A DNA stretch of 64,000 nt from Pseudomonadota bacterium (GTDB taxonomy: Bacteria; Pseudomonadota; Gammaproteobacteria; Burkholderiales; JABEVD01), in contig JAJZRS010000015.1 of the NCBI GenBank assembly GCA_021802545.1, positions 2,239 to 66,238 on the forward strand, in the 5' to 3' direction. Below are positions 4,546-32,874 of this stretch, in pieces. The notes below the pieces were generated by a model. It was not told the origin of the DNA, did not search any database, and worked only from the letters and a program-made list of their open reading frames with translations. The position numbers were made by a program, and so were the translations under genes. Numbering within the stretch: the stretch's first letter is position 1; every line of letters starts with the position of its first letter.

Positions 4546-6456
4546 TCAGGCAAGCGGCGAGGGTTTTCCGATCACAAAGCCTTGAAACCCGTCAATATGG
4601 AGCTTGGCAAGCATGGCGCGCTCCGCTTCTTTCTCGACAGCTTCGGCATAAACGCGCGCATCGACGCCATGCGCGATTCCCGCGATCGCCTGGACCAGGA
4701 ATTGGTTGCCCTTGTCGATATCGATATTGCGGACATAACTGCCGTCGATCTTGAGATAGTCGACCTTCAAGGACGCCAGATAGCCGAAGGAGGCGAATCC
4801 CCGGCCGCACCGGTCAACGCCGAATCCGCATCCGTAAGGCTTGAGGCGCTCGATCATTTTTGCCACGTCCACCTGGTGCCTCGAAACGTCGAACTCGCTC
4901 ATCTCGAAGCTCACCCTGCCTGCATGCTTTCCTGCATCCTTCAGCCTGCCTTCGAGCCATGGAATAAAATCGTGCTCGATCAAGGTCATGATGGAAAGAT
5001 TGATCGCGAACTTTTCTTCCGGGTGCTTGGGGAGCAATTCAAGCACTTGATCGATGACAAGGCGGTCGAACTTTCCTGCATAACCCAGGCTTTCGGCCAT
5101 GGGCATGAAAAGCCCCGCATTCAGGGTTTCTCCTTCATGTTCCATGCGGATGAGCGCCTCGTTATGGATCAGGTCACCCCCATCGATCACCTTCTGGAAG
5201 TGAAGCAGGATATTGCCTGAGGATGCCGTTTTTTCGAATAGCGCCTTCCAGAATTCCGCACCACGTGCAACAGACGCTTTGCCTTCGAACCGCACCCAGG
5301 TTCCGTTTCGCTGCGCAGCCCGCAAGGCCATGTCCGCCTCTGCAAGGAGGATGGATGCGCTCATCCCCTTCGCGAAAAGGGCGAGCCCGAGATGAATGGA
5401 AACGTTTTCACCGCACAACGCGTCCAATCTTTCGCTCATTTGATCTGCGATGCGTTCCGCCTCGATGAGCCCGATATCGGATACGAGCAACGCGAAATTG
5501 GAACCGGCAAGGCGCGCAAGCACCATCCCCCTCATGTCCTCGGAGAGCGACTTGAGTCCTTGTGCGATGTTGCGCAACAATGCATTCCCGGCCTCGAAAC
5601 CTGCGCTTTGATTGTACGCGCCCAGGCCGTCGAGTGCGATCAGGAAAAGCGCACCGTTGTAGAATTCCTCCGTTGATGCGACCATATGGGAGACTTGGAC
5701 ATCGAAGTGCCGCCTGTTCCCGATGCCTGTTACCGGATCGAGATAGCCCTCGTTGCGAAGCATGTCGGCCAGCATCTGCTGCGCTTCGAAATCCTCTCTG
5801 ACTTTCGCCGACATTCTGTTCATGACTTCGACCACTCGCCTCAGATCCTTCGTCCAGGGCAGCTTGTCCTGAATCACGTAATCCCTCGCACCGATCGCGT
5901 CGGCCTGACTCTCGACCGCCTTAAGCGCCCTCAGCACGAAATGCATCGCGATCGACCCCAGGATCAAGGTCGCAGCTGCAAGCATACCCAGCCAGGCTAG
6001 CTCGCCCATGCTGTTACGCCAAAGCTGCTGGTAGGCATAGCCCGGGTGGCTTGCGACCTCGACGATGGCGGCCTGCCGCCAGCCGGACATGACGATCGCC
6101 TCCTCTTTCGGGGTCTCGATCGGCACGAGTCGGACGAACCAGGCGGGGACGCCTTCGACCTTGATGGGAAGGATGCGGCGAATCAGGGTTTCGCCTCGTA
6201 TACTCCGGACAGTGATTTCCCTGTAATACCCTCTGTCGAAAATCGCGTCGACCATCGAGGTCATGGTCGGCAAGTCGTCCTGCTTCATGGGCCGGGACAG
6301 GGAAAGCCCGAGGGATGTGGCGGTGTCCTGCGCGTGAGAGGCGAGCTGCTCAGCGAGATAGCGGCGCGCGCCTTCGACGGAGATCGCGGACACGCCTGCG
6401 AAAACCAGCAGGAAAAGCAGCACGAGGATGCCTGAAAGCTGGGCTCTCAGCGTCAT
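4546..6456 (-). CDS. lapD: LapD-like inner-membrane c-di-GMP receptor (periplasmic LapD/MoxY-N domain, HAMP, degenerate GGDEF, EAL)
   Basis: 636 aa. N-terminal TM, a periplasmic segment, a second TM (AWLGMLAAATLILGSIAMHFV), then a HAMP-like region. The GGDEF-position motif is degenerate (NQSAGFEAG). The EAL domain shows EALIR, NLS, EMSE, KIDGSY, AEAVE and FQGF. Immediately downstream of a LapG-type protease gene. Confidence 0.8.
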   Translation of the reverse strand: MTLRAQLSGILVLLFLLVFAGVSAISVEGARRYLAEQLASHAQDTATSLGLSLSRPMKQDDLPTMTSMVDAIFDRGYYREITVRSIRGETLIRRILPIKVEGVPAWFVRLVPIETPKEEAIVMSGWRQAAIVEVASHPGYAYQQLWRNSMGELAWLGMLAAATLILGSIAMHFVLRALKAVESQADAIGARDYVIQDKLPWTKDLRRVVEVMNRMSAKVREDFEAQQMLADMLRNEGYLDPVTGIGNRRHFDVQVSHMVASTEEFYNGALFLIALDGLGAYNQSAGFEAGNALLRNIAQGLKSLSEDMRGMVLARLAGSNFALLVSDIGLIEAERIADQMSERLDALCGENVSIHLGLALFAKGMSASILLAEADMALRAAQRNGTWVRFEGKASVARGAEFWKALFEKTASSGNILLHFQKVIDGGDLIHNEALIRMEHEGETLNAGLFMPMAESLGYAGKFDRLVIDQVLELLPKHPEEKFAINLSIMTLIEHDFIPWLEGRLKDAGKHAGRVSFEMSEFDVSRHQVDVAKMIERLKPYGCGFGVDRCGRGFASFGYLASLKVDYLKIDGSYVRNIDIDKGNQFLVQAIAGIAHGVDARVYAEAVEKEAERAMLAKLHIDGFQGFVIGKPSPLA

Positions 6457-12810: not shown

Positions 12811-13590
12811 ATGGGATTTCTAGAAGGCAAGCGCATTCTCGTCACCGGGCTCCTCAGCAACCGCTCGATCGCCTACGGCATCGCGAAGTCATGCAGGGAA
12901 CAGGGTGCCGAGCTCGCTTTCACCTACCAGAACGAGCGCTTCATGGAGCGCGTCCAGAAGCTGGCTGCGGAATTCGATAGCACGCTTGTCCTGCCATGCG
13001 ATGTCTCCAGCGACGAAGAAATAGCGCAGCTCTTTTCCGGTCTCGCCAAACACTGGGACAAACTCGACGGACTGGTCCATTCCATCGCCTTCGCGCCCAA
13101 GGAAGCCTTGTCAGGCGATTTCCTGGACGGCGTATCCAGGGAAGCCTTCAGGATCGCGCACGACGTCAGCTCGTACAGCTTCGCTGCGCTCGCCAAGGCC
13201 GCTTTGCCCATGTTGAGCGAAAAGGCCGCGCTGTTGACCTTGTCTTACCTGGGCGCCGAAAGATGCGTCCCCAATTACAACATGATGGGACTGGCCAAGG
13301 CGAGCCTGGAAGCGAACGTGCGCTATCTTGCACAGAGCCTGGGACCCAAAGGGATTCGGGTCAATGCCGTCTCGGCCGGCCCGATCAGGACGCTTGCGGC
13401 AAGCGGAATCGAGGGATTCGGGAAGATTCTGGATTTCGTCGAACAGAACGCCCCCATGCGGCGCAACGTCACCATCGAGGATGTCGGCAACGCCTCAGCT
13501 TTCCTCCTGAGCGATCTGGCTGCCGGCATCACTGGCGAGATCACCTACGTCGACGCCGGCTTCAACACCACGATAGGCGGGATGGGCTAA
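12811..13590 (+). CDS. fabI: Enoyl-ACP reductase (NADH) FabI
   Basis: 259 aa. [39 protein letters not shown]... plus the [24 protein letters not shown] catalytic Y/K region. RBS GGGGGAAAAAATG. Confidence 0.95.
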
Positions 13591-15485
13591 TCGGCAGGCT
13601 TGGCTGTAAGCAGTTTGCTGTTCACCGTGATCTTCGCACTGCTCTTGAGGGCGTTGAAGTATTCGGAAAGCGCTTCCTGGGATACAGCCTGCTTCAGCTG
13701 GTCTGCCATGGCGGCAAGCTCAGAGGGGGATGGATCGGGTGCCTCGAGCACCTTTGAAATCCTCACGACCGTATAACCGCCGTTCCCGGGCACGCCGACA
13801 TAGGCCGGCAGCTTGGACACGTCGGCCTTGAAGAGGGCAATCATGACGTCCTGCGCCAATTCTCCCGGATCCCGCCGGCTGACGCTCACTTCAGGCTTCC
13901 ATGACATGCCGACGTCCTTGCCCGCTTGCAGCGCGGCCAGCTTGTCCTTGCCGTCCTTCAACGCCGCGTCCATGGCCTTGCGCTGGAGCAGCTTGTCCCT
14001 GATTTGACCGCTGACGTCGGCAAGCGCCTTGGTGAAGGCAGGCTTCATATCGACAATGCGCGCCGACACGAGCACATTGGGCGAGACCTCGATCGCCTCG
14101 GTATTCCTTTTTTTCTTCATTGCATCGTCCGAGAAAATCGCAGCGAGCAACTTTGCGTTCGTGGGGAATGACGCATTGCCTCCCGACTCGTCCAGCCAGC
14201 CGCTCGTCTGGACGGGCAACTTGAAGGCATCGGCCGCGTCCTTCAGGCTGCCGCTCTGCTCGTAGACCATGTCGCTGAACTTTTCCGCGTTCTCGCTGAA
14301 TTTCTTGCCGGCTTCCTGCTCCCTGATGTCCCTGACGATTTCGTTCTTCACATCTGAAAAGGCCTTCGTCTTTCCAGGCTTGACCGCATTGAGCTTGATG
14401 ATGTGGAAACCGAATTCGGAGCGGATTGGACCGGCTATCTCGCCCGGCTTCATCGAGAAAACAGCCTCGTCGAACGATTTGACCATCATGCCATGCTTGA
14501 AGAAGCCGAGATCGCCGCCGCTTGCCGCGGAACCCGGATCCTGTGAATACTCTTTCGCCATTTCCGCAAATTTCGAAGGCTGCTGCTTCAGCTGGGCCAT
14601 GATCTTGTCCGCTTTCGCCTTGGCCGCCTCCACTTTGTCCTGCGGCGCATCCTTGGCAACGGCAATCAGGATGTGACTCGCATCCCGTTCTTCAGGCACC
14701 GCAAATTCGGCAGCATGAGACTCGAAATACTGTTTCGCATCCGCATCGCCCACCGGGATCTGGGACTGCAGCGTCTCTGGGGAAAATACCAGGTATTCGA
14801 CCTTCACCTGCTGCGGCACCTTGAATTCTTCGACATTGTCCTTGTAGTACTTGGCTATTTCGTCCTGGCCAATTTTTTCCGAGGAAGCATACTGGGCAGG
14901 CGAAAAAGAAGCCTCGCTCACCACGCGCCGCTGGTCGAAAATCTTGGCGAACTGCACTGCGGAGGCATGAGATATGAAACCGTTCTGCGCCACGACGCCG
15001 AGCAGCTGCTGGCGCTCCAGATCCTGCCTGACCTCGGACTCGAATCTGACCGGAGTCAGCCCTTGGCTGCGCAGGAGAGTCTTGTAGCGTTCGTCCGAAA
15101 AAGCGCCGTCCTTCTGGAAGGCCGGAATGGATTGAATCGCGGCTATCAATTGGGCGTCGGTGACAGCAATCCCGACCTTTTCCGCTTCGTCCAGAAGCAG
15201 GTTCTGCTGGATGAGCCGTTCGAGAACTGCAGCCTTGAAGCCGGGGCTGTCGAACATGGCCTGATCCGCATTCTTGCCGAGCACATCCCTCAGCCTTTCC
15301 TGCTGCTGCTTGAGCGCTGCATCGAACGCTTCCGCCCCTATCCTTCTCCCGTTCACGCTGGCGACATTGCTCGCGCCGCCGCTCCGGTAGGACTGAATGC
15401 CCCAAAACATGAACGTCAGAATGACGAGCCCGAGGATGATATGGACAATCTTCTTGTTTCTCTCGACGAAATCGAACATGGACAA
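13587..15485 (-). CDS. ppiD: Periplasmic chaperone / peptidyl-prolyl isomerase PpiD
   Basis: 632 aa. N-terminal anchor ([19 protein letters not shown]). Parvulin region: ASHILIA...[21 protein letters not shown]...GFHIIKL. Conserved position downstream of hupB and the tRNAs. Confidence 0.9.
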
Positions 15486-16595: not shown

Positions 16596-19013
16596 TCAAT
16601 GCTTGATCACGGCAGGCTGAGAAAGCTCGTCGATCTTGGCCGGAATCGCCTCGACCCCCCCTTCCTCTGAAACGCCAGGAAGCGCGACAGGCTTACTTTC
16701 AAGTGCAAAATCAATAACCTGATCAATCCACTTGACAGGGTGTATCTCGAGCTTGCTCTTGATGTTGTCCGGTATTTCCGTGAGATCCTTGACGTTTTCC
16801 TCGGGGATCAGCACGTGCTTGATTCCTCCCCTGTGGGCAGCCAGCAGCTTCTCCTTGAGCCCACCGATGGGCAGCACTTCGCCGCGCAACGTGATTTCGC
16901 CCGTCATGGCAACGTCCGCCCGAACGGGAATGCCCGTCAGGATCGAAACAATCGCCGTGCAGATCGCAATGCCTGCGCTCGGACCGTCCTTCGGTGTCGC
17001 TCCTTCCGGAAGGTGGATGTGGATATCGGTCTTCTGGTAGAAGTCATCTGCAATACCCAGCGTTTTCGCCCTGTTTCTCACGACGGACAGCGCGGCCTGG
17101 ATCGATTCCTGCATGACTTCACCCAGGGTACCCGTGGTGATCGTCTTGCCCTTTCCTGGCAGCATGACGCTCTCGATCGTCAACAGATCGCCTCCCACTT
17201 CGGTCCAGGCAAGCCCAGTGACCTGACCGACCTGGTTTTTCTTCTCGGCCATCCCGTAGCTGTAGCGCCTGACGCCCAGGAATTTTTCCAGGTTTCTCGA
17301 CGTGACGGTGATGGTCCTTTCCGTCTTCTTCAGGAGCAGCATTTTCACCACCTTGCGGCAGATCTTGGCGATCTCGCGCTCGAGACTGCGGACGCCCGCC
17401 TCTCTCGTGTAGTAGCGCACGATGTCGCGCACCGCGCTTTCCGAGACGGAAACCTCAGTTTCCTGGAGGCCATGGTATTTCATCTGCTTCTTGATGAGAT
17501 AGCGCATGGAGATATTGATTTTCTCGTCTTCCGTATAACCGGAAAGCCTGATCACCTCCATCCTGTCCAGCAGCGGGGCGGGAATGTTGAGGGTGTTCGC
17601 GGTCGCGACGAACATGACATCGGAAAGATCATATTCGACCTCGACGTAATGGTCGACGAAGGTGCTGTTCTGTTCCGGATCGAGCACTTCCAGGAGCGCT
17701 GAGGAAGGATCTCCCCTGAAGTCCGCCCCCATCTTGTCGACTTCGTCGAGCAGGAAGAGCGGGTTCCTCACCCCGACCTTGCTCATGTTCTGCAGGATCT
17801 TGCCCGGCATCGAGCCGATGTAGGTCCTTCTGTGACCGCGAATCTCGGCCTCGTCGCGCACGCCGCCCAGCGACATGCGAACGAACTTTCTGTTGGTCGC
17901 TCTTGCGATCGACTGCCCGAGAGAGGTCTTGCCCACCCCGGGAGGCCCGACGAGGCAGAGAATCGGGGCCTTCAGCTTGTCGACGCGCTGTTGGACGGCC
18001 AGATACTCCAGGATGCGTTCCTTGACGCGATCGAGGCCGTAGTGATCCTTTTCCAGGATGGCTTCCGCGGCAGCAAGATCGCGGCTGATCTTGTTTTTCT
18101 TCTTCCAGGGGAGCGCAACCAGGGATTCGATGTAATTCCTGACGACCGTCGCCTCGGCGGACATGGGCGACATGAGCCTCAGCTTCTTCATTTCCGACTC
18201 GGCCTTGGCGCGCGCTTCCTTCGGCATGTGCGCATCTTCTATCTTCTTCGAAAGCTCATCGAGATCAGCCCCTTCTTCGCCTTCTCCAAGCTCCTTCTGG
18301 ATCGCCTTCACCTGCTCGTTGAGATAATATTCGCGCTGGCTCTTTTCCATCTGGCGCTTGACCCGGCCCCTGATGCGCTTTTCGACCTGGAGGATGTCGA
18401 GTTCGGCTTCAAGCAGGCCGAGCAAATGCTCGAGTCGCTTCTGAACGTCGAAAATCTCGAGAATCTCCTGCTTCTGCTCGAGCTTGAGCGGCAGATGGGC
18501 AACGATGGTGTCGGCCAGCCGGCCCGATTCGTCGATCGAGGAAAGCGAAGTCAGTATCTCGGCAGGAATCTTCTTGTTGAGCTTGACGTACTGGTCGAAC
18601 TGGGCGAGCAGCGCGCGCCTCATCGCTTCGACTTCGTGGTTTTCCGTTTCCTCGGCGGAAACGAGGCGCACGATGCCTTCGAAATGGTTCTTCCTGTCGA
18701 GCACCTCGAGAATTTCCGCGCGGTGCGAGCCCTCGACCAGAACCTTCACGGTTCCATCCGGCAGCTTCAGCATCTGCAAGATGTTGGCTACATTGCCGAT
18801 TCTGTACATGTCATCGGCGGAAGGCTCATCCTTGGCAGCGGATTTTTGCGCCACGAGCACGATGCTCTTGCCGGATTCCATCGCCGCATCGAGCGCCTGG
18901 ATGGATTTGGCGCGTCCGACGAAAAGCGGAATCACCATGTGCGGAAACACGACCACGTCCCTGAGCGGGAGCAGCGGCATGAGGAGTTGGTTTTCTGCTT
19001 GATCGGACATCAT
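16596..19013 (-). CDS. lon: ATP-dependent protease Lon (LonA)
   Basis: 805 aa. LON N-domain ([23 protein letters not shown]). Walker [10 protein letters not shown]. Protease site [10 protein letters not shown]. Sits in the conserved clpX-lon-hupB order. Confidence 0.95.
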
Positions 19014-22460: not shown

Positions 22461-22545
22461 GCGGGTATGGCGAAATTGGTAGACGCACAAGATTTAGGTT
22501 CTTGCGAAGCGATTCGTGTCAGTTCGAGTCTGACTACCCGCACCA
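22461..22545 (+). tRNA. tRNA-Leu (TAG)
   Basis: GCGGGTATGGCGAAATTGGTAGACGCACAAGATTTAGGTTCTTGCGAAGCGATTCGTGTCAGTTCGAGTCTGACTACCCGCACCA. Long variable arm. Anticodon loop is TTTAGGT. Confidence 0.95.
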
Positions 22546-22628
22546 TCTCAGTACTGTAACATTGCCTTCATTTTCCCGAAACATACGCCCGTTACAATGT
22601 GGCCCTGATCACTTAATGGACAGGACCC

Positions 22629-23912
22629 ATGCACAACGAAATCCCCAAGGAAAACGAGCCCGAGATCAAGTCGGAAGACATGGCGGCCAGCCTTTCCGAA
22701 ATCGAGGCCGAATACGTCGCGTCCAGCCTGATCAGAAAATCCCCTGCCGTCCTGCCAGCACAATCCAACGAAGAAGTGCTGCAGCTTCTGGCTCAGCATA
22801 CCGATGTGGTCGGACTGCCTGTCGTGGAAGACAGCAAACCGATCGGCATGATCAACCGCAGCATCTTCATGGACGAAATGGCCAAGCCTTTCAGGCGCGA
22901 ACTGTATTCCAGAAAAAGCTGCATCGCCTTCATGGACAAGCAGCCGCTCGTGGTCGATGGCCGCATGAGCATACAGGAACTGAGCTTCAAGGTCGTCGCA
23001 GCGGGCAACAAGGCCCTCAAGGACGGCTTCATCATCACCGCCCCCTCGGGCGAATATGCAGGCGTTGGGACAGGCGAGGATCTGATGCAGGTGATCGCCA
23101 ACCTCCAGGCCGAAAAGAACAGGCTGGTCATGGAAAGCATCAATTACGCCAGCGTGATCCAAAAATCCTTCCTCAGGTCGGCAAGGCGCGATCTGGAAGC
23201 CTCCCTGCACGACTATTTCATTCACTGGGAGCCGCGCGACAGGGTGGGCGGTGACTATTACTTCTGCAAGAAATTCGACGACGGCTTTTTCATCGCACTG
23301 ATCGACTGCACCGGCCACGGCGTCCCTGGCGCCTTCATGACCCTGATCATGGCCGCCTTCCTCGACCATCTCCTGCAAAACGACAACCGCATGGATCCTG
23401 CAGGCGCGCTGTCCGCAATGAACAGGAAGGTCAAGATAGCGCTCGGCCAGATCGAGGAAATGAACATCTCCCATCTCGGCGAAGCCGAGCATTCGGACGA
23501 CGGCATGGATACGGCCTTTTGCTGGGTGAATCCGTCGGCCGGAAAAATGGTTTATGCCGGGGCGAAAACCCCGCTTTTCCTGCTGCCCAAAGGCAGCGAT
23601 GAAATCACTGTCGTCGACGGCGACAAGAAGGGCGTCGGCTACGTGGAAACGCCCATGGATTATGCCTGGACAAACAAGGAAGTTGCCCTACCGGAAGGAA
23701 TCAGCGTCTATCTCACCACGGACGGCATCATCGACCAGATCGGCGGTCCGAAAAGCATCGCCTTCGGCAAGAAGCGCTTCTCGAAACTGATTCTCGAGCA
23801 TTGCAGCCTGCCCATGATGGAGCAGAAGGGCCGCATCATGCAGGCCTTCTACGAATACCAGGGCAGCCAGCGGCGACGCGACGACGTCAGTTTTCTTGGA
23901 TTCAGGATATAA
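22629..23912 (+). CDS. CBS-pair sensor fused to PP2C/SpoIIE-type Ser/Thr phosphatase (SiaA-like role)
   Basis: 427 aa. The N-terminal half has two CBS-like units (VVGLPVVEDSKPIGMINRSIF... and PLVVDGRMSIQELS...GFIITAPSGEYAGVGTGEDLM). The C-terminal half has PPM metal-ligand motifs: RVGGDYYF, IDCTGHGVPGAF, DDGMDTAF, LTTDGIIDQ and RRDDVSFLGF. Confidence 0.8.
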   Translation: MHNEIPKENEPEIKSEDMAASLSEIEAEYVASSLIRKSPAVLPAQSNEEVLQLLAQHTDVVGLPVVEDSKPIGMINRSIFMDEMAKPFRRELYSRKSCIAFMDKQPLVVDGRMSIQELSFKVVAAGNKALKDGFIITAPSGEYAGVGTGEDLMQVIANLQAEKNRLVMESINYASVIQKSFLRSARRDLEASLHDYFIHWEPRDRVGGDYYFCKKFDDGFFIALIDCTGHGVPGAFMTLIMAAFLDHLLQNDNRMDPAGALSAMNRKVKIALGQIEEMNISHLGEAEHSDDGMDTAFCWVNPSAGKMVYAGAKTPLFLLPKGSDEITVVDGDKKGVGYVETPMDYAWTNKEVALPEGISVYLTTDGIIDQIGGPKSIAFGKKRFSKLILEHCSLPMMEQKGRIMQAFYEYQGSQRRRDDVSFLGFRI

Positions 23913-23921
23913 GGGCTCGCC

Positions 23922-24473
23922 ATGCAACTCGACATGTTCAATGCATTTTGCAATTCGGCCGATTTCAGCGGCGTGATTTTCTACTACAACGGCGAACTCT
24001 CCCAGAACGTCGTCGCCACGATGGGTGACGCCTTGAAAGGCAGACTCGAGGAAGAAGGCAATCTCGGCCCCAAGGCGAGAAAGCTGTTTTCGAGTTACAT
24101 CGAGATGGTCCAGAACGCCCTGCACTATTCCCCGCTCGCGCCGAATGGCGGAAAGCTCGGGGCCGTTGCCGTGGGCAAGCGAAAGGAAGACAAGTATTTC
24201 ATCGTGTGCGGGAACCTGGTCGAGAAGAAGCACATGGAGCGCATTCGGGAAAAAATCGAGCCTTTGCGGAGCATGACGCTCGAGGAAATAAAGAAGGCAT
24301 ACAGGGAGCAGCTGAAGAACGACAGGCATGCAGAGGAAGATGATATCAGCAAGGGGGCGGGGCTCGGTTTCCTGACCGTAGCGCGCGATGCATCCGAGCC
24401 GATCGAATATGCGTTCGATGAGGTACCCGGGCATAGCGAACTCGCCCGTTTTTATCTTAAAGCAATCGTGTAA
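23922..24473 (+). CDS. SiaB-family small protein kinase (GHKL-like, anti-sigma-kinase-like fold)
   Basis: 183 aa. Contains VIFYYNGELSQNVVATMGDAL...SSYIEMVQNALHYS...GAGLGFLTVARDA. Size, motif pattern and position between a PP2C gene and a DUF1987 gene match P. aeruginosa SiaB by recall. Confidence 0.7.
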   Translation: MQLDMFNAFCNSADFSGVIFYYNGELSQNVVATMGDALKGRLEEEGNLGPKARKLFSSYIEMVQNALHYSPLAPNGGKLGAVAVGKRKEDKYFIVCGNLVEKKHMERIREKIEPLRSMTLEEIKKAYREQLKNDRHAEEDDISKGAGLGFLTVARDASEPIEYAFDEVPGHSELARFYLKAIV

Positions 24474-24483
24474 GGAGATTCTC

Positions 24484-24873
24484 ATGAACGACATCTATCT
24501 GGCCAAAACCACACAATCCCCCGAAGTGGACTTCCGTTTCAAGGAGCATGTGCTTTCCATGACAGGAGAAGCCTACCCCGAGAACGCAAATGATTTTTTC
24601 CACCCTATCCTCAATGCGCTGGAAAATTATCTCGCATCCAATGACGGCAAGGACATCGAGTTCAACTTCCGCCTGACCTACTTCAACAGCGCCGCGACGA
24701 AGATGCTGTTCAACATGTTCGACCTGCTCAACGAATCGGCCGCTTCAAGCAACCGGATCGTTCTGAACTGGTACCATGACGAAGAGGATGACACCATCCT
24801 CGAATTCGGCGAAGGCGTCCAGGATGACTTCCAGGCACTGGAATTCAGGGCCATCGCCACAACTTCGGCCTGA
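24484..24873 (+). CDS. SiaC-family (DUF1987) regulatory phosphoprotein
   Basis: 129 aa starting at ATG 24484 behind RBS AAGGAG; the track ORF begins earlier, at 24388. Sequence: MNDIYLAKTTQSPEVDFRFKEHVLSMTGEAYPENANDFFHPILNALENYL...FRLTYFNSAATKMLFNMFDLL...LNWYHDEEDDTILEFGE. This is DUF1987-like. Confidence 0.75.
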   Translation: MNDIYLAKTTQSPEVDFRFKEHVLSMTGEAYPENANDFFHPILNALENYLASNDGKDIEFNFRLTYFNSAATKMLFNMFDLLNESAASSNRIVLNWYHDEEDDTILEFGEGVQDDFQALEFRAIATTSA

Positions 24874-25181
24874 TGTCCGCATTTGAAAAATCGCTGAGCA
24901 TCCCCGTGATGCTCAGCATCCCCCCCAGGCCCGATCCCGTGCTGGGCAAGATCAAGCGTCTTTTCAAGAACAGTCTCGTCGTTTTCTCCTCGATCAGCCT
25001 TCCCCGCGAACACCGCTGCGAACTGGCATTCAGCCTGAATCAGGGCCAGCCCGTCAGAATTCTGTGCAGCGTGGAGGAAAACGTCCATACCCGCTCTGGA
25101 TTCGAGATCTACCTCAAGATAATCAGCCATTTCGACCCGAAAAGCGCCTCGGCGCTGGCCGCGCTTTCCGGCGCGCGCTGA
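24873..25181 (+). CDS. Hypothetical 102-aa protein, translationally coupled to the SiaC-like gene
   Basis: Its ATG shares the A of the siaC-like TGA stop (cTGATGtcc). There is no signal peptide or TM. I recognise no family. It occupies the slot where SiaD (a diguanylate cyclase) sits in the Pseudomonas operon. Confidence 0.5.
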   Translation: MSAFEKSLSIPVMLSIPPRPDPVLGKIKRLFKNSLVVFSSISLPREHRCELAFSLNQGQPVRILCSVEENVHTRSGFEIYLKIISHFDPKSASALAALSGAR

Positions 25182-25255: not shown

Positions 25256-27712
25256 TTGAACAAACCATCCCGGAAGTCGCCCTTGCCTCATGAGAAACTC
25301 GGGCTGGACGCCCCTGCGATCCGTCAGTCGCTCAACAACCGCCTCACCTATACCGTCGGAAAGGATCCGCTGACCGCAACCGAGCGAGACTGGTTCCACG
25401 CGCTCGCCTATGCGACGAGAGACCGGCTGGCCGAGCGCTGGATGGACACCATGCGCAGCTATTACGACAGGGATGCCAAGCGGATCTACTACTTTTCCCT
25501 CGAATTTCTCATCGGACGCATGCTGGTCAACAGCCTGAGCAATGTCGGATTCTACGATGAATGCAAAAAAGCCCTGGAAGAACTCGGGCTCGATTTTGAC
25601 GAACTGAAAGAAATCGAGCATGACGCGGCGCTGGGAAACGGCGGTCTGGGAAGGCTTGCAGCATGCTTTCTGGATTCCATGGCCACCCTCGGCATTCCAG
25701 GCTACGGATGCGGCATACGTTATGAATACGGCATGTTCAACCAGCGCATCGAAAACGGCTGCCAGATAGAACACCCGGACAATTGGCTGCGCTACGGCAA
25801 CCCATGGGAATTCCCTCGCCCCGAAGTGCTCTATCCGATCAAATTCTTCGGTCACGTCGCAGAATATGTCGACGAAAGCGGACACCTCTGCCATCAATGG
25901 ATGGATACAGAGGAAATCATGGCGATGGCCTACGATACGCCCGTGCCGGGCTATGGCAACCATGTCGTGAACAACATGCGCCTGTGGTCGGCCAAGGCCA
26001 CGAGGGACTTCAATCTGCGGTATTTCAACGAAGGCAATTACATCAAGGCGGTCGAGGAAAAGGACAGCTCGGAAAATCTCTCCAAGGTGCTCTACCCTGA
26101 CGACACGACCTTGATGGGCCGGGAGCTCCGCCTCAAGCAGCAATATTTCTTCGTCAGCGCATCGCTTCAGGACATTCTCCGCCGCTTTCTCAAGCATCAT
26201 GACGATCTCAAGGCTTTTCCCGAAAAGGTTGCCATCCAGCTCAACGACACCCATCCTTCCATCGCCATTGCCGAACTGATGCGCCTCTTGATGGATACCC
26301 ATCAGCTCGGCTGGGACCAATCCTGGGAAATCAGCTGCAATACGTTCTCGTATACCAACCACACCCTGATGCCGGAAGCATTGGAGACATGGCCGATCTC
26401 CCTGTTCGAGCGGGTTCTTCCCCGGCACATGCAGATCATCTACGAGATCAACCGCCGTTTCCTCAGGGATGTCATGCACCGTCATCCGGGCGACAGCGCG
26501 CTGCTGAAGCGCATGTCGATCATCTCTGAAGAAGGCGAACGGCGCATCCGCATGGCGCATCTTGCCATCGTGGGCAGCCACAAGGTGAACGGCGTGGCGC
26601 GCATCCACACCGAACTGATGAAGAGCACGATCTTCTCCGACTTCGACCGCTTTTTCCCGGGCAAGATCGTCAACATGACGAACGGCGTGACACCCAGGCT
26701 GTGGCTCAAGCAGGCCAACCCGCATCTGTCCCAGCTGATTTCCTCGCACATCGGCAACGGCTGGCCCGCGAACCTCGGCGAACTCGAAAAACTGGCCCCT
26801 CTTGCCGAGAACGCTGCATTCCGCCAGGCGTTCCGAGAAGTCAAGCGCGCCAGCAAGGCCAGGCTCGCCTCCCTCGTCAAGGCGCGGCTTGGCATTGAAA
26901 TCGACACTGATTCCCTGTTCGACGTCCAGATCAAGCGCATTCACGAATACAAGCGCCAGCTGCTCAATTTGCTGCACGTCGTCACGCGCTACAACCGCAT
27001 CCGCAAGAACCCATCGGCCGACATCGTGCCGAGGACAGTGATTTTCGGCGGCAAGGCGGCCCCCGGCTACGCCATGGCCAAGCTCATCATCAGGCTGATC
27101 AACGACGTGGCCGACATCGTCAACAACGACCCTGCAGTGAACGGGCGCCTGAAAGTCGTCTTCATCCCCAATTACGACGTGTCCACCGCGCTCGACATCA
27201 TTCCTGCGGCCGACCTGTCTGAGCAGATATCGACCGCGGGCACGGAAGCCTCAGGCACCGGGAACATGAAGCTCGCCATGAACGGCGCATTGACCATCGG
27301 CACGCTGGATGGCGCCAATATCGAAATCAGGGAAGAAGTCGGCGAAGACAACATTTTCATCTTCGGGCTCACCGCGGAAGAAGTCGCTGAGAGCTACGAC
27401 AAAAACCATCCCGTGCATCCGGAAATGCAGGAAGCGCTCCACATGATCGGCTCTGGCTACTTTTCCCCGACGGATCCGTATTGCTACCTGCCTGTCGTCA
27501 GCGCGCTCACCCAGGGCGACCATTACCGGCTGACCGCGGATTATCCCGCCTACATCAGCTGCCAGGAAAGGGTGGACGAAGCCTATCGGGACAGGGATGC
27601 ATGGTCGAGGAAGGCCATCCTCAATATCGCGAAAATGGGGAAATTCTCAAGCGATCGGACCATAGACCAGTACGCAGGTGAGATCTGGAAGGTCGAACCG
27701 GTATCAAGATGA
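25256..27712 (+). CDS. glgP: Glycogen/maltodextrin phosphorylase
   Basis: Hallmarks: EFLIGRML, GNGGLGRLAACFLDSMATLG, and the PLP-lysine region TAGTEASGTGNMKLAMNGALTIGTLDGANIEI. There is no in-frame ATG after the upstream gene. TTG 25256 gives an N-terminus about the length of E. coli GlgP. The track start at 25064 would overlap the upstream gene with an Arg-rich nonsense extension. Confidence 0.9.
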   Translation: MNKPSRKSPLPHEKLGLDAPAIRQSLNNRLTYTVGKDPLTATERDWFHALAYATRDRLAERWMDTMRSYYDRDAKRIYYFSLEFLIGRMLVNSLSNVGFYDECKKALEELGLDFDELKEIEHDAALGNGGLGRLAACFLDSMATLGIPGYGCGIRYEYGMFNQRIENGCQIEHPDNWLRYGNPWEFPRPEVLYPIKFFGHVAEYVDESGHLCHQWMDTEEIMAMAYDTPVPGYGNHVVNNMRLWSAKATRDFNLRYFNEGNYIKAVEEKDSSENLSKVLYPDDTTLMGRELRLKQQYFFVSASLQDILRRFLKHHDDLKAFPEKVAIQLNDTHPSIAIAELMRLLMDTHQLGWDQSWEISCNTFSYTNHTLMPEALETWPISLFERVLPRHMQIIYEINRRFLRDVMHRHPGDSALLKRMSIISEEGERRIRMAHLAIVGSHKVNGVARIHTELMKSTIFSDFDRFFPGKIVNMTNGVTPRLWLKQANPHLSQLISSHIGNGWPANLGELEKLAPLAENAAFRQAFREVKRASKARLASLVKARLGIEIDTDSLFDVQIKRIHEYKRQLLNLLHVVTRYNRIRKNPSADIVPRTVIFGGKAAPGYAMAKLIIRLINDVADIVNNDPAVNGRLKVVFIPNYDVSTALDIIPAADLSEQISTAGTEASGTGNMKLAMNGALTIGTLDGANIEIREEVGEDNIFIFGLTAEEVAESYDKNHPVHPEMQEALHMIGSGYFSPTDPYCYLPVVSALTQGDHYRLTADYPAYISCQERVDEAYRDRDAWSRKAILNIAKMGKFSSDRTIDQYAGEIWKVEPVSR

Positions 27713-30094
27713 TCTGGTTTTCTTTTGAGAGAAGGTTCTCCTGATCTCCGAGAATTTGGACAGGCGAGCCAGCGCGTTACCGTTGATGCAGCCGGCAGGG
27801 AATCGGCCCGTCGCGTCGGCCGTGCCTGCGTCAAGCCCGGTCAAGATGCTGATCGCCTCGTCGAAATGGCTCACGGCATAGATACTGAATCTTCCCGCGC
27901 GCGCCGCCTCGACCACTTCCTTTTTCAGCATCAAATGCTTCACGTTGGCCCCTGGAATGACGACGCCCTGCGCACCATTGAGCCCCCTTCTTGCGCAGAT
28001 ATCGAAAAATCCTTCGATTTTCTCGTTGACGCCGCCGATGGCTTGCACCTGTCCGAACTGATTCACCGACCCCGTCACCGCCATGGACTGCAGGATCGGG
28101 GCGTCCGCCAGCTTCGAAACCAGCGCGCAAAGCTCCGCAAGCGATGCGCTGTCGCCTTCGATGAGCCCGTAGGATTGTTCGAAAGCGAGGCTCGCTGAAA
28201 GGGAGAGCGGACGGTCGTGCGCATAGCGCGAAGCAAGGAATGAGGACAGGATCAGCACACCCTTGGAATGGATGGCGCCGCTCAGTTCGGCTTCCCGCTC
28301 GATGTTGACGAGTTCCCCTTCCCCCACCCTCACCGTCGCCGTGATTCTCGTCGGCAGCGAGAAAGCATAGTCGGCAAGCTGGATCACCGAAAGCCCGTTC
28401 ACCTGCCCCACCACTGCGCCTTCCGTATCGATCATGATCGTGCCGCGCAATATTTCCTCATGAAGGCGGAACTTCAGCCTGTCCGAGCGCTCGTTCCTCG
28501 CGCGAATGGCCTCCTCGATATCGTTCAGCCCGACGATTTTCCCGCCCTCGTTTCTCGCCTGGAAATCGGCTTCTCGCAAGAGGTCGGCAAGCGCCTTGAT
28601 ATGCGTCGTCAGCCTTTCAGAGTCCGATGCAAGGCGTGACGCATATTCGATCGCGCGCGCAACGGCTTGCCTGTCGAAAGGCAGCATCTCCTCCTTCCTG
28701 GCCAGGGTCGCGATCAGCCTCGCATAAAGCAGGACATTCTCGTCGCTCCGCTCCATCTGATCTTCGAAATCGGCTGGTATCTTGAACAGCTTGCCGAACT
28801 CCGGATCGTATTCCATGAGCATGTAATAGAGCAGCCGGTCGCCGAATAGGACAACCTTGACATCGAGCGGGATGGGTTCAGGTTCAAGAGACACGGTGCT
28901 GACGAGGCTCAGGGCCTGCCCCAGTGATTCCATCCTGATCTCGCTGGACGCCAGCGCACGCTTCAGCCCTTCCCAAGCATAAGGCTGCATCAATACCTTG
29001 CGCGCATCGAGCAGCAGATAACCGCCGTTCGCCCGGTGCAGCGCGCCCGCCTTGATCAGCGTGAAATTGGTCACGAGCGCGCCCAGCTGGGCGACATGCT
29101 CGACCCTGCCGACGAGATTGCCGTAGGAGGGATTTTCCTCGAACAGGATGGGCGCCCCGGCCGATACATAATGGTTGCCCAGCACGTTCACCTGATAGCG
29201 CTCCAGGGAAGGCCGTTCGCCGAGCCCCAAGAGCGCTGACGTCTTGTCCTCCCCCTTCAAAAAATCCCTTGCGTTTTCGACGACATCCCGCTCCACCGCA
29301 TCGAGATAGGCGAGCACGGCGCTGTCCGAATAGGCCGCTCTCACCTCGTCGATCAGGTGAAGCACCGCGACCTTCGTGGTTTCCCTGTAAAGCGCCCTGA
29401 CCTTTTCCCTGTTCTCCTTCATCCATTTGGGAATCTGGCGGATGATTTTCTGCAATGCCTCCTGGAAGATTGAAATCGCCTTCCCAAAGCTTTCCTGCTT
29501 CTTCTGGGGAAGCTTCTCGTAATCGGCAGGAGAAATCACGACATGGTTGGCCATGGGGGCGAAAGCGAATCCCTCGGGCGTCCTGAGCAGGGCCACGTCC
29601 TTTTCTTCTGCACGCTTTCCGAGTTCGTCGAAAGCGTCGTCCTGGCGCCTGCCGAGCTCCTCCTGGATCGCCTCGAGCTTGGCCCTGTACTCGTCGCTTT
29701 CCAGGGCGGCAGGAATCGCGACATGCAGCTCTTCCACGAGATGCGCCATGTCGGCTGCAAGCTTGACGCCCATTCCGTTCCGAAGCTTCAGGGCAATCGG
29801 CTTGTGCGGCTCAGAAAAATTGTTGACATAACACCAGTCGAAAGGCTCCGGCTCCGTTTTCGCCTTTCCCTCGAGATACTGCATGACCATGCTGCGCTTG
29901 CCCAATCCAGGCGGGCCGAGCACGAACAGATTGTAGCCTTCACGCCCGATGCCCGCGCCGAACCTGATTGCGGAAAGCGCACGCGGCTGGCCGATGAATT
30001 CGGTCAATTCTTCGAGGCCGTCTGTCGTCTTGAAATCGAAAATATCCGGATCGCATGCCGTGTTCAACTTGCAGGGGTCGAGCGGTGAGGTCAT
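27704..30094 (-). CDS. Lon-like (LonC/COG1067-type) AAA+ protease with inserted coiled-coil domain
   Basis: Starts at MTSPLDPCKLN (ATG 30094, ATGA overlap with the upstream stop). Contains FIGQPRALSAIRFG and the P-loop GPPGLGKRS, then a long helical insertion. The C-terminal S16 protease domain has GDSASLAELCALVS (Ser) and GGVNEKIEGFF (Lys). Confidence 0.75.
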   Translation of the reverse strand: MTSPLDPCKLNTACDPDIFDFKTTDGLEELTEFIGQPRALSAIRFGAGIGREGYNLFVLGPPGLGKRSMVMQYLEGKAKTEPEPFDWCYVNNFSEPHKPIALKLRNGMGVKLAADMAHLVEELHVAIPAALESDEYRAKLEAIQEELGRRQDDAFDELGKRAEEKDVALLRTPEGFAFAPMANHVVISPADYEKLPQKKQESFGKAISIFQEALQKIIRQIPKWMKENREKVRALYRETTKVAVLHLIDEVRAAYSDSAVLAYLDAVERDVVENARDFLKGEDKTSALLGLGERPSLERYQVNVLGNHYVSAGAPILFEENPSYGNLVGRVEHVAQLGALVTNFTLIKAGALHRANGGYLLLDARKVLMQPYAWEGLKRALASSEIRMESLGQALSLVSTVSLEPEPIPLDVKVVLFGDRLLYYMLMEYDPEFGKLFKIPADFEDQMERSDENVLLYARLIATLARKEEMLPFDRQAVARAIEYASRLASDSERLTTHIKALADLLREADFQARNEGGKIVGLNDIEEAIRARNERSDRLKFRLHEEILRGTIMIDTEGAVVGQVNGLSVIQLADYAFSLPTRITATVRVGEGELVNIEREAELSGAIHSKGVLILSSFLASRYAHDRPLSLSASLAFEQSYGLIEGDSASLAELCALVSKLADAPILQSMAVTGSVNQFGQVQAIGGVNEKIEGFFDICARRGLNGAQGVVIPGANVKHLMLKKEVVEAARAGRFSIYAVSHFDEAISILTGLDAGTADATGRFPAGCINGNALARLSKFSEIRRTFSQKKTRSS

Positions 30095-32874
30095 TCTCTG
30101 CCTTTCTTTTGTCCTAATACAAAGGATAGACCCGGCTCGCCGCAATGGGAAAGAATCCGGCCCCGGGCTTCATCCCGAAGACGGATTGCGGATTCCCAAC
30201 CCGCCCCTTTCGGGAAAATGGGCGCCCCTATCCAAACATTCAATTCGCTTCTTCTCGGAAACCAGCCGCCGTCTCGCAAGGCAGAGCGCGTGCCGCGCAA
30301 GGCGACCGGAACGACGGGAATGCCTGCATTGCTTGACGCAAGGAAGGCGCCCATGCGGAATTCCGCAAGTCCGGGCATCCTGGTGAAGGTCCCCTCCGGA
30401 AAAAAAATCATGGACCGCCCCGATCTTGCCATGTCCTCGAGGCGCTCGATATCCGGCCCGATTTCCCCGCGCGCGACGAATGCCGATCCGACATGATCGA
30501 GATAGAGCCTAGAGATGAAGGAATCCTGCAGTTCCTTCTTGGCGATGAAGGAAAAGAAACCGCCCGGCGCGAGAGAACCGTGCAGGGCTGCGGCCATCAC
30601 GATGCCGTCCGCATAGCTCGCGTGGTTGGCGACGAGGATGGCGGGATCGCCTTGCAGGTTTTGCATTCCCTCGACATTCAACCGGTATCCGCAAAGGGTC
30701 AGGAAAATCCGCGCGAAGCATCTGCTCGATGCCCAGCTCCATGCCCTGCTTTTCGATGACACGGCGAAAAACCAGGCGAAGGGAGCGATCGCCCAGAAGA
30801 CGATCCAGACATGGGCCGCGTAAAGAATGCCGCCCATGGCCCTGGCAAGCCTCCTCGCCTGAGGAAGAATCCCTTCTGCGAGAAAGTCGAGATAATGCAT
30901 CCGCTTCCTCTTCAAGCCGCCGAGATAAAGCGATCGAGAAGCTGCCCGCCTGATCTTGCCGCTGGAAGTCTTGAGGACGGTATGGGGAGGGACGAGCAAT
31001 ATTTCGTCCGGCGGCTCGCCGAGCACGTCGACGACGGCATCGTTGACCAAACCCTTCAGCCTCTCCAGCGCTTCCCTTTGCTTGGTTTCAGCCATCACGA
31101 CAAGCTGCTCCGTTCCGCCCCTGGGCACCCCGAAAACAGCAACGCAACCCCGCCTGATGCCGGGCAAATTGCCCACCGCTTCCTCGGCCTCATAGGGTTG
31201 GATATTTCTGCCTGCCCGGATGATGAGGTCTTTCGCACGGCCCGTGACGTAAATCTCGCCGTCGGCGATATAGGCAAAGTCGCCCGAATCGAGCCATGCA
31301 TCGTGGAAAAGCTTTCCCGTCTCCTCCGGATTCCTGAAGTAGCCGCTTGTCGCAGAGGGCCCCTTGAACTCGAGCCTCCCTTCCCTCCTCTCGCCAACTT
31401 CGCGGCCGGCCGCATCGACAATCCTGATCTCGTGCCCGGGAAGCGGCAGGCCGCAGGAGACGAATGCGACCCTATCCACCCCGCCCTGAATCGCCCGGCC
31501 TGTCCTGGCGAACAGGTCGCGATCCACCTCATCCACTTTCGGACCTCTGCCCGGAGGAGGGAAAGCCAGTCCGACAGAGGATTCCGCAAGCCCGTAGACG
31601 GGCGAAATTGCCGACGGATTCAGGCCGTATTTGGAGAATTTCTCCGAAAAACCACGGATCACCTCCGGACTGACAGGCTCTGCCCCGTTGAAGGCCATGC
31701 GCAGGCTGGACAGATCGATTCCCTGCATGTCCTCCCCTTCGATCTTGGAAAGACAGAGCGCATAGCCGAAATTCGGGGATGCGGTCAGCGTGCCTCTGTG
31801 TCTCGAGATGCAGGAGAGCCACCTTGCAGGTCTGGACAGGAAGGATAGGGGTGACATGACAACATATCTGCAGGCGTGATAAAGGCTGCCGAGCCAGGCG
31901 CCGATCAGCCCCATGTCGTGATAAAGCGGCAGCCAGCTCACGAAAACGTCATTCGAACCGACCTCGGCTGCCGTCCCCATGGCGCGGATGTTCGCCAGCA
32001 GATTGGCGTGATTCAGCATTACGCCCTTCGGGTTTCCGGTGCTGCCCGAGGTATATTGCAACAGGGCGATATCCTCCCTTTCCAGGGCAGGCACAACCTC
32101 GATGTCTTGAGTCGATAGATCTCGGGGCAGAACGATTCCCCGCAAAGATTCGACCTGAAGCCCGAGCAGCTTCGCAAGCTTGGCCGCTTCGTCGAAAGTG
32201 ACCAACATGACCGCTCCTGCATTCGACAATATCCCGGCATGCCGCTTCAGGTGGTCAGCCATCTGGGAAAGTCTGAAAGGAGGATAGATCGGAACGGGAA
32301 TGCAGCCTGCCATCAGGATGCCGAAAAAGCTGAAGAAATAATCCGGCCCGGTGGGAAGCATAAGTGCGACGGCCTCCCCCTTCTGCACACCGCGCATGAT
32401 CAGCCCGCCAGCCACCCTTTTCGCGCGCTTCTCGAGTTCGCCGTAGCTGATCGGCACCGTTTTCCCGGATTCTTCGAATAGGATGTGGATCCGATCGCGA
32501 TGATTCAGGACATGCCATTCCAGGACTTCGGTCAGGGTCTGCGCATCGGTCGGAAACCCTGAAACCTCGCGCTCGGCTTCAGGCGCTTCGGCGATTTCGT
32601 GTAGCGGCAGTTGCTGCTTCCCGAGCGCTTCCAGGATGTCCCTGAGCGTTTCCGCTTCTCCCAGCAATGCCTCGGGAAGTCGGACATCGAAGGCGCGCTC
32701 CACCCTCATCATCAATTCGACCCGCGTCAGGCTGTCGAAACCGAGATCGCGTTCGAGCGACATGTCGAGATTCGGCTGCCCGACCTTCGATGCGCGCGCT
32801 TCCCTTGAGAGCTTCGCCGCGACGCCGAGCAGCTTTTCAGAGACCGTGTCTTGCCATGGATCCGGGCTTTTCAT
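30091..32874 (-). CDS. Tri-domain fusion: acyl carrier domain, acyl-AMP ligase (FAAL/acyl-ACP synthetase-like), TM segment, lysophospholipid/glycerol-3-P acyltransferase (PlsC family)
   Basis: 927 aa. PP-binding motif LGFDSLTRVELMMRVE. Adenylation motifs LQYTSGSTGNPKGV, SGDFAY and LKTSSGKIRR. Hydrophobic helix ILYAAHVWIVFWAIAPFAWFFAV. Acyltransferase motifs NHASYADG (HX4D), FFPEGTFTR and IPVVPVAL. Confidence 0.8.
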   Translation of the reverse strand: MKSPDPWQDTVSEKLLGVAAKLSREARASKVGQPNLDMSLERDLGFDSLTRVELMMRVERAFDVRLPEALLGEAETLRDILEALGKQQLPLHEIAEAPEAEREVSGFPTDAQTLTEVLEWHVLNHRDRIHILFEESGKTVPISYGELEKRAKRVAGGLIMRGVQKGEAVALMLPTGPDYFFSFFGILMAGCIPVPIYPPFRLSQMADHLKRHAGILSNAGAVMLVTFDEAAKLAKLLGLQVESLRGIVLPRDLSTQDIEVVPALEREDIALLQYTSGSTGNPKGVMLNHANLLANIRAMGTAAEVGSNDVFVSWLPLYHDMGLIGAWLGSLYHACRYVVMSPLSFLSRPARWLSCISRHRGTLTASPNFGYALCLSKIEGEDMQGIDLSSLRMAFNGAEPVSPEVIRGFSEKFSKYGLNPSAISPVYGLAESSVGLAFPPPGRGPKVDEVDRDLFARTGRAIQGGVDRVAFVSCGLPLPGHEIRIVDAAGREVGERREGRLEFKGPSATSGYFRNPEETGKLFHDAWLDSGDFAYIADGEIYVTGRAKDLIIRAGRNIQPYEAEEAVGNLPGIRRGCVAVFGVPRGGTEQLVVMAETKQREALERLKGLVNDAVVDVLGEPPDEILLVPPHTVLKTSSGKIRRAASRSLYLGGLKRKRMHYLDFLAEGILPQARRLARAMGGILYAAHVWIVFWAIAPFAWFFAVSSKSRAWSWASSRCFARIFLTLCGYRLNVEGMQNLQGDPAILVANHASYADGIVMAAALHGSLAPGGFFSFIAKKELQDSFISRLYLDHVGSAFVARGEIGPDIERLEDMARSGRSMIFFPEGTFTRMPGLAEFRMGAFLASSNAGIPVVPVALRGTRSALRDGGWFPRRSELNVWIGAPIFPKGAGWESAIRLRDEARGRILSHCGEPGLSFVLGQKKGRE

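Follow-up and report, generated by a model that had tools for sequence, protein, structure and literature searches.

A 64 kb stretch of contig JAJZRS010000015.1 (assembly GCA_021802545.1, Burkholderiales), referred to here as the window, was analysed. Between a tRNA-Leu gene (22461-22545) and the glycogen phosphorylase gene glgP lies a cassette (22629-25181, plus strand) of four tightly packed open reading frames (ORFs), separated by gaps of 9 nt, 10 nt and -1 nt. The first three encode a PP2C phosphatase, a SiaB-type kinase and a DUF1987 phosphoprotein, in the same order as in the SiaABCD system of Pseudomonas aeruginosa (PA0172-PA0169). The fourth gene of that system encodes a stalk-GGDEF cyclase, SiaD; the window has relatives with a SiaD-like counterpart, but its own operon lacks one and instead carries a 102 amino acid ORF (ORF4) that is lacking in Pseudomonas. 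The features of the cassette are as follows:

22629..23912, plus strand: SiaA-like phosphatase gene; 427 amino acids, soluble, with a CBS pair, a long linker helix and a PP2C domain
22716..23072, plus strand: predicted CBS pair (Bateman module), residues ~30-148, from the Pfam CBS match at residues 34-84 and an AlphaFold2 (AF2) model
23073..23204, plus strand: predicted long connecting helix from sensor to catalytic domain, residues 149-192, from the AF2 model
23211..23909, plus strand: PP2C/SpoIIE catalytic domain, with the metal-binding Asp motifs GGDYY, DCTGHG, DGMD, TDG and RDD
23922..24473, plus strand: SiaB-family serine/threonine kinase gene (DUF6272), 183 amino acids
24484..24873, plus strand: SiaC/DUF1987 phosphoprotein gene, 129 amino acids, from an ATG after an AAGGAG ribosome-binding site
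24688..24690, plus strand: codon of Ser69, the predicted phospho-acceptor (YFN-S-AATK), aligned to P. aeruginosa Thr68 (LYLN-T-SSIK)
24873..25181, plus strand: gene of the orphan accessory protein ORF4, 102 amino acids, with a TGATG overlap with siaC

Core proteins and the sensor domain

The first-pass annotation of this DNA, which was made without database searches, had proposed a Sia-type phosphatase, kinase and phosphoprotein core, and this was borne out by matches in Pfam, NCBIfam and the PDB; all of the motifs it cited for the three proteins are present and its ORF coordinates are exact. The phosphatase matched Pfam SpoIIE (9e-18), and its best NCBIfam model was the SiaA equivalog (207 bits, below the cut-off of 700), which aligned at model positions 405-657 only, covering the linker and the PP2C domain. 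Its closest PDB relative was the PP2C domain of P. aeruginosa SiaA (6k4e; 9e-47, 34% identity). An AF2 model of the phosphatase was obtained from 13 homologues (predicted local distance difference test score, pLDDT, 82.6); its PP2C domain gave 6k4e as the top Foldseek match (TM-score 0.88), and the C-terminal part of the linker helix aligned with a helix lying ahead of the PP2C domain in the same structure. The catalytic motifs were unchanged across the 13 homologues.

When the second and third genes were checked by profile search they fell into the families expected of them. The kinase matched Pfam DUF6272 (2e-37) and NCBIfam SiaB_fam_kinase (NF038262; 166 bits, above the cut-off of 85), with the SiaB equivalog as its best model (98.5 bits, below the cut-off of 225); against the PDB it matched SiaB (6kko_A, 8e-22), and the IEM.QN and GAGLG motifs are kept. 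The phosphoprotein matched Pfam SiaC (2e-40; 137.6 bits against a cut-off of 24.5), its best NCBIfam model was the SiaC equivalog (80.4 bits, below the cut-off of 150), and P. aeruginosa SiaC was found in the PDB (6kko_C/6k4f, 3e-16). For the three core proteins 6k4e, 6kko_A and 6kko_C were the best or only solved matches. Ser69, which had been named beforehand as a candidate site, is by alignment the equivalent of Thr68 of P. aeruginosa SiaC, an experimentally proven phospho-site (PMC7647112). The acceptor position, at the N-terminus of helix alpha2, is common to both systems; it is Thr in P. aeruginosa and Ser in the window, as in 42/42 CBS-type SiaC sequences compared.

The sensor of P. aeruginosa SiaA consists of two transmembrane helices and a HAMP domain, whereas the window phosphatase has a predicted cytoplasmic CBS pair. 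No transmembrane segment was found in the latter (the highest 19-residue Kyte-Doolittle mean was 1.52, located within the PP2C domain) and no HAMP domain was found by Pfam, as the first-pass annotation had stated. Its further proposal of an N-terminal CBS pair stood as regards a cytoplasmic CBS input, while the second motif of the pair is backed by the AF2 model and by weak profile matches. Pfam detected the first CBS motif only (26.3 bits against a cut-off of 24), the second being below detection, and no internal-repeat signal was obtained when the two halves were compared with hhalign. In the AF2 model, residues 30-93 and 97-148 each form a beta-alpha-beta-beta-alpha unit. A profile built from the first 130 residues matched nothing but CBS proteins in the PDB (among them one full-pair alignment, E 0.07, and one second-half match), and the homologue at locus L024 has two Pfam CBS stretches. 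As the second motif was missed by both Pfam and the internal-repeat test, the CBS pair is considered supported but not proven.

The second CBS motif reads G-V-G-T-G-E-D-L in the window (23040-23063, residues 138-145; alignment A4). The same alignment gives an invariant G-x-G-T-G-E-D-L in the window's clade, which is largely siaD-less, against G-x-G-x-G-L-x-L in a siaD-linked Burkholderiales clade, a clade-specific difference which hints at different ligands in the two. The Thr/Asp pattern of the G-x-G-T-G-E-D-L type is the canonical ribose-binding pattern of CBS domains, and a G-h-x-T-x-x-D pattern is typical of adenosyl-ligand sites in such domains. Regulation by a CBS pair (Bateman module) occurs in IMPDH, the AMPK gamma subunit, CBS-pyrophosphatase and MgtE, whose tandem CBS arrangement ahead of an effector domain is also predicted for the window protein; a PP2C phosphatase under the control of a CBS pair was not found among characterised proteins.

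The CBS-type family and the occurrence of siaD

The CBS input had been read in the first-pass annotation as a local rewiring of the Sia core, but the combination proved to be widespread and conserved. The CBS-PP2C protein has thousands of relatives, of which the top 120 are 58-100% identical, ~400-436 amino acids long and mostly annotated as CBS plus SpoIIE; these come from Methylophilaceae, Sulfuricella, Sulfuriferula, Leeia and methanotrophs. Loci for comparison were drawn from representative genomes, from metagenomes and by exact look-ups (they are designated by L numbers), and in every locus extending far enough downstream the full-length CBS-PP2C gene is followed by siaB and then siaC. 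In Beta- and Gammaproteobacteria, CBS-PP2C/SiaB/SiaC makes up a large and conserved family. No description of a CBS-sensor SiaABC(D) branch was found in the searchable literature.

The loci were divided into two clades: clade A comprises L011-L024 (Burkholderiales, Ectothiorhodospira and Phytobacter), whose phosphatases are 41-49% identical to that of the window, and clade B is the window's own. A ~245 amino acid SiaD-like stalk-GGDEF gene lies directly after siaC in 14/14 clade-A loci. The encoded cyclases have an N-terminal helical region of ~80 residues and a GGDEF domain with GGEEF, and their best NCBIfam match is the SiaD equivalog model, with the alignment reaching into the stalk. In clade B, loci L088 and L123 have a 247 amino acid SiaD-like gene after the trio; their cyclases are 74% identical to one another, a level close to the 71-74% at which their core trio matches that of the window. 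These CBS-type SiaABCD operons (L011-L024, L088 and L123) share the window's architecture at 41-72% identity, together with the YFNS acceptor motif; they retain the ~245 amino acid SiaD-like cyclase, while the window does not. Clade A, unlike the window, is without the Thr/Asp pattern in the second CBS motif, and ORF4 is common to the window and L088 only among these operons.

Some 35 further clade-B loci whose sequence continues beyond siaC (26 distinct SiaC sequences) have the trio with no SiaD-like gene after siaC, and in those scanned with a GGDEF model no such gene was found within the 4-5 kb covered. The gene that follows siaC varies and is often convergent (a protoglobin gene, methyl-accepting chemotaxis protein genes, pqqA and others). 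No SiaD-like GGDEF gene adjoins the window cassette either, in agreement with the first-pass annotation, and the sole GGDEF-type ORF in the 64 kb is that of a LapD-like protein:

4546-6456, minus strand: LapD-like cyclic di-GMP (c-di-GMP) receptor, with a LapD_MoxY_N periplasmic domain, GGDEF and EAL

The presence of this receptor indicates that the organism uses c-di-GMP signalling. The absence of the cyclase gene from the cassette most likely reflects a loss of siaD from the operon and not the gain of a new output. The rewiring to a new output that had been proposed found no support in that form. A GGDEF gene linked to the cassette in relatives, which the first-pass annotation had itself named as the sign of a mere loss, was largely borne out, such a gene being present in all 14 clade-A loci and in L088 and L123.

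Other genes of c-di-GMP signalling were seen near the trio in single loci. In the siaD-less locus of Leeia oryzae a convergent multi-transmembrane GGDEF gene lies beside the trio (L120:7366-8565, minus strand), an EAL-CBS-GGDEF gene lies upstream of it in L122 (L122:414-2270), and an HD-GYP-type gene lies upstream in Sulfuricella (L124:213-1454). As such genes are common, their adjacency may be due to chance. L123, which has the SiaD-like gene, also has a divergent CBS-HisKA kinase gene upstream (L123:2443-3717, minus strand).

Sia-like cassettes with non-CBS sensors were also encountered. In four loci siaC is followed by a class III adenylate/guanylate cyclase gene whose product has an N-terminal extension of ~100 amino acids, and a PAS-cyclase gene was found as well; genes for an HD_5/HD-GYP-type, a CYTH or a Usp protein were also seen after siaC. 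The positions of these post-siaC genes are L026:8795-9838, L035:8843-9865, L036:6308-7561 (minus strand) and L038:3020-4066, and further L030:10193-11881, L074:10120-10977, L059:10392-10931 and L048:7846-8715 (minus strand). This diversity suggests that the Sia core is a general switch for nucleotide second-messenger enzymes.

ORF4

The ATG of ORF4 and the TGA stop of siaC have one base in common (TGATG), an overlap from which ORF4 is judged to be translationally coupled to siaC. The first-pass annotation had described this gene as a 102 amino acid, stop/start overlapped ORF of unrecognised family, and indeed no match was obtained in Pfam (even at E 10), NCBIfam or PDB sequence searches. The possibility that ORF4 is a spurious ORF was rejected. 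Compared with its copy in L001 (87% identity), the in-frame ratio of nonsynonymous to synonymous substitution rates (dN/dS) is 0.19 (0.14 for codons 25-102), against at least 0.43 elsewhere: the other five frames gave 0.43 (a frame with stop codons) or >1.2. Third codon positions account for 24/41 differences, and L088 has a syntenic homologue. An antisense ORF of 150 amino acids over the same region (24678-25130) has a dN/dS of 1.2 and a stop codon in L001.

Homologues of ORF4 were sought by a word-indexed search (5.8 billion clustered proteins), an exhaustive HMMER search (1.8 billion representatives) and a profile search. These returned only P0002 (87% identity) and P0123 (100 amino acids, 39% identity, E 6e-9), giving three clusters in all; two further HMMER matches were dismissed as repetitive eukaryote-like proteins. 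The gene lies directly after siaC in 3/3 clusters. P0123 is encoded in L088, where it stands between siaC and siaD, 247 nt ahead of the SiaD-like gene; it has diverged to 39% identity, against 71-74% for its neighbours. ORF4 is missing from L123, the sister of L088, and both ORF4 and siaD are missing from L086 (86-90% identity), the window's nearest relative outside its species group. No ORF4-like ORF was found in the other loci among L001-L119. This rare and patchy occurrence, beside siaD in L088 and with absence from L086 and L123, points to a sporadically retained, fast-evolving accessory gene and not to a SiaD substitute. ORF4 is not the replacement output for SiaD, contrary to the suggestion that it had taken that gene's place. 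ORF4 was also considered as a remnant of siaD and rejected: its alignment with 13 sequences (SiaD-like cyclases plus doubtful ORFs of L011 and L016) was noise, and tblastn and a SiaD-built hidden Markov model were negative at 24.8-25.3 kb.

A single-sequence AlphaFold model of ORF4 (pLDDT 49.5) is beta-rich with a C-terminal helix. Foldseek gave nothing significant for it, all fold matches having E >0.1; the weak matches to this low-confidence model include the PilZ structures 1ywu, 5xly_B, 5vx6, 4rt0 and 3ph1 (probability <=0.6, E >0.3). PilZ proteins are of similar size and share the predicted beta-rich core and C-terminal helix, but at the sequence level the assignment was not supported: Pfam gave nothing at E 10, hhalign against the validated MapZ sequence gave 0.05% probability, and the RxxxR and (D/N)xSxxG c-di-GMP binding motifs are absent from a three-sequence alignment (A3).

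It may be asked whether ORF4 could be a new output in its own right, with unphosphorylated SiaC binding the 102 amino acid protein and the signal passing onward, for example through ORF4 as a PilZ-like adaptor. The invariable position after siaC, the TGATG coupling in the window, purifying selection on ORF4 even with no adjacent siaD, and the appearance of PilZ structures among the non-significant matches would all suit this proposal. It is nonetheless considered unlikely: the L088 homologue stands beside siaD and not in place of it, the gene is absent from L086, L123 and the ~35 other loci that keep the trio, and both the missing PilZ signal and the quality of the model speak against it. Less likely again is the fuller version, in which the switch is cyclase-free here and acts via ORF4, an adaptor or effector bound by SiaC that might link the neighbouring glycogen phosphorylase to an adenylate or energy signal. 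This would then be a DUF1987 partner switch whose output is not a nucleotide cyclase and in which one component has newly arisen.

ORF4 also contains a short repeat:

24893..24917, no strand assigned: perfect 10-bp inverted repeat GCTGAGCATC, loop CCCGT, GATGCTCAGC, in ORF4 codons 7-15 and covering the internal Met13 ATG

Its RNA fold z-score is -3.8, and both stems are identical in L001 although ORF4 DNA is only ~87% identical there. A T-run follows the repeat on the minus strand and gives it a terminator-like look on that strand; the repeat may be an RNA stability or translation-control element.

Activity and target of the switch

All four ORFs of the cassette are intact with the catalytic motifs all present, and in comparison with L001 the phosphatase, kinase and SiaC genes have dN/dS values of 0.066, 0.109 and 0.050, as expected of genes under purifying selection. 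Homology to the solved Sia proteins identifies the three core genes, and their order holds throughout the family. A decaying remnant that has not signalled since siaD was lost would explain the absence of a linked output gene and the dispensability of ORF4 in L086, but with dN/dS values of 0.05-0.19 across four intact ORFs, full catalytic motifs and a trio kept at 55-74% identity in many siaD-less lineages, this is scarcely credible and was already disfavoured.

The residues of P. aeruginosa SiaC that contact the SiaD stalk are known from a crystal structure (PMC8457831), and the equivalent positions are E29, Y31, Y66, N68, S69, T72, F/Y76, T104 and F/L108. These positions are equally conserved in the 26 distinct siaD-less clade-B sequences and in the siaD-linked ones, and the window SiaC is identical to those of L088 and L123 at most of them. 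The conserved surface would fit continued binding of a stalk-type partner encoded elsewhere; this is suggestive only, because the same surface faces the kinase and the phosphatase.

The reading we favour, with somewhat better than even confidence, is that the cassette is a soluble, CBS-sensor member of the SiaABC(D) family which has lost its linked siaD and acts on a target encoded in trans, probably a cyclase. The CBS pair would bind a cytoplasmic ligand, most likely an adenosine-type nucleotide, and this signal would be carried by the long linker helix and set the activity of a dimeric PP2C domain. The phosphatase and the SiaB-like kinase would then jointly set the phosphorylation of the SiaC-like protein at Ser69. 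Unphosphorylated SiaC would bind and activate a target; the gene for it most likely lies elsewhere in the genome, a stalk-bearing c-di-GMP cyclase being the most plausible candidate, and ORF4 may modulate this SiaC-target step. The logic is that of RsbU/V/W, SpoIIE/AA/AB, HsbR/HsbA/HsbD and BgrSTUWV, in which a small STAS-like protein is acted on by a GHKL-type kinase and, in opposition to it, by a PP2C phosphatase. In classical partner switches it is the unphosphorylated small protein that binds the target (PMC8457831). Those systems differ in having a STAS phosphoprotein and a receiver, RsbT-binding or membrane sensor, where the window has a DUF1987 phosphoprotein, a DUF6272 kinase and a CBS pair.

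Several points weigh against this reading. No partner cyclase was found within the visible 64 kb, where the one GGDEF-type ORF is the LapD-like receptor, and most clade-B members are without a linked cyclase, so a different target is possible. The SiaC surface could have been kept for its recognition by the kinase and phosphatase instead. The choice of siaD loss over gain was made on a neighbour-joining tree without support values. The CBS ligand, too, is a prediction, the second CBS motif coming from a predicted structure and weak profile matches.

A target in trans could also be reached through the kinase. Here the SiaB-like protein would be the effector, as RsbW is, inhibiting an unlinked target until titrated off by unphosphorylated SiaC, and no siaC-adjacent gene would be needed. 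The trio does stand alone in most clade-B loci, and SiaB is a member of the GHKL-like class of kinases, which serve as anti-sigma factors in the Rsb and Spo systems. SiaC, for its part, resembles the STAS-domain antagonists in structure (PMC8457831, PMC7647112). However, SiaC and not SiaB is the effector in the only system that has been characterised (PMC8457831), the SiaD-contact surface of SiaC is still conserved in siaD-less loci, and none of the loci examined has a linked sigma factor or other candidate target of SiaB. We regard an effector role of the kinase as improbable.

The gene downstream of the cassette was considered as a target in the same way:

25256..27712, plus strand: glgP, glycogen phosphorylase (Phosphorylase family), with a TTG start behind GGGGAACAAC

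The glgP gene lies on the same strand, 75 nt past ORF4. No intrinsic terminator was found between siaC/ORF4 and glgP in the window, so that read-through is possible. In L086 glgP begins 128 nt after siaC, and the GC-rich spacer there folds no better than shuffled sequence. The start codon is TTG in the window, ATG in L001 and GTG in L086, and an element, TGTCAAGATA, 27 nt upstream of the glgP start is common to all three; it may be a promoter or operator. A CBS-sensed energy signal could in principle control glycogen breakdown through binding of SiaC to GlgP. The adjacency is retained in L001-L005 and L086, and the Sia system of P. aeruginosa responds to carbon availability (PMC7647112). Against this, glgP adjoins the cassette only in these relatives of >=86% identity and is not near it at any other locus. 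It is also preceded by a conserved element and a ribosome-binding site of its own, and GlgP is without a SiaD-like coiled-coil stalk. GlgP as the target is thus very improbable; only position links it to the switch, and glgP is probably a neighbour outside the system.

One further feature was read from the sequence upstream of the cassette:

22593..22598, plus strand: TACAAT, a possible -10 hexamer of the operon, within the 83 nt between tRNA-Leu and the cassette

This hexamer was not called by the promoter scan, owing to a weak -35. Further out, a gene for a LonC-type Lon-like protease (LonC_helical, AAA_32 and Lon_C; 27704-30145, minus strand) is convergent with glgP, with a 3' overlap of 9 nt, while the canonical lon (16596-19013) lies on the opposite side of the cassette. 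In three ENA contigs that encode the same ORF4 protein as the window, a RepA_C-family gene lies beyond hupB (L002:1-192, L003:1-192 and L005:1-192), where the window (13587-15485, minus strand) and L001 have ppiD (SurA_N plus rotamase). This points to a rearrangement or an insertion at strain level, located ~7 kb upstream of the cassette.

For the window locus the result is mostly corrective, in that the missing cyclase most likely reflects a loss rather than a proven move to another output. Work on SiaABCD has been confined to Pseudomonas, in which a biofilm cyclase is under the control of a membrane sensor. Through the CBS-sensor branch, Ser/Thr partner switching, and in most cases c-di-GMP synthesis as well, would be tied to the metabolic or adenylate state of the cell. 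Elsewhere the core lies beside genes for class III cyclases and for HD-GYP-type, CYTH and Usp proteins, which suggests that it serves more generally as a control module for second-messenger enzymes. The three-gene switch is retained without a linked output in many lineages of methylotrophs, methanotrophs and sulfur oxidisers, and the target of such an orphan trio would reveal how portable the SiaC mechanism is.

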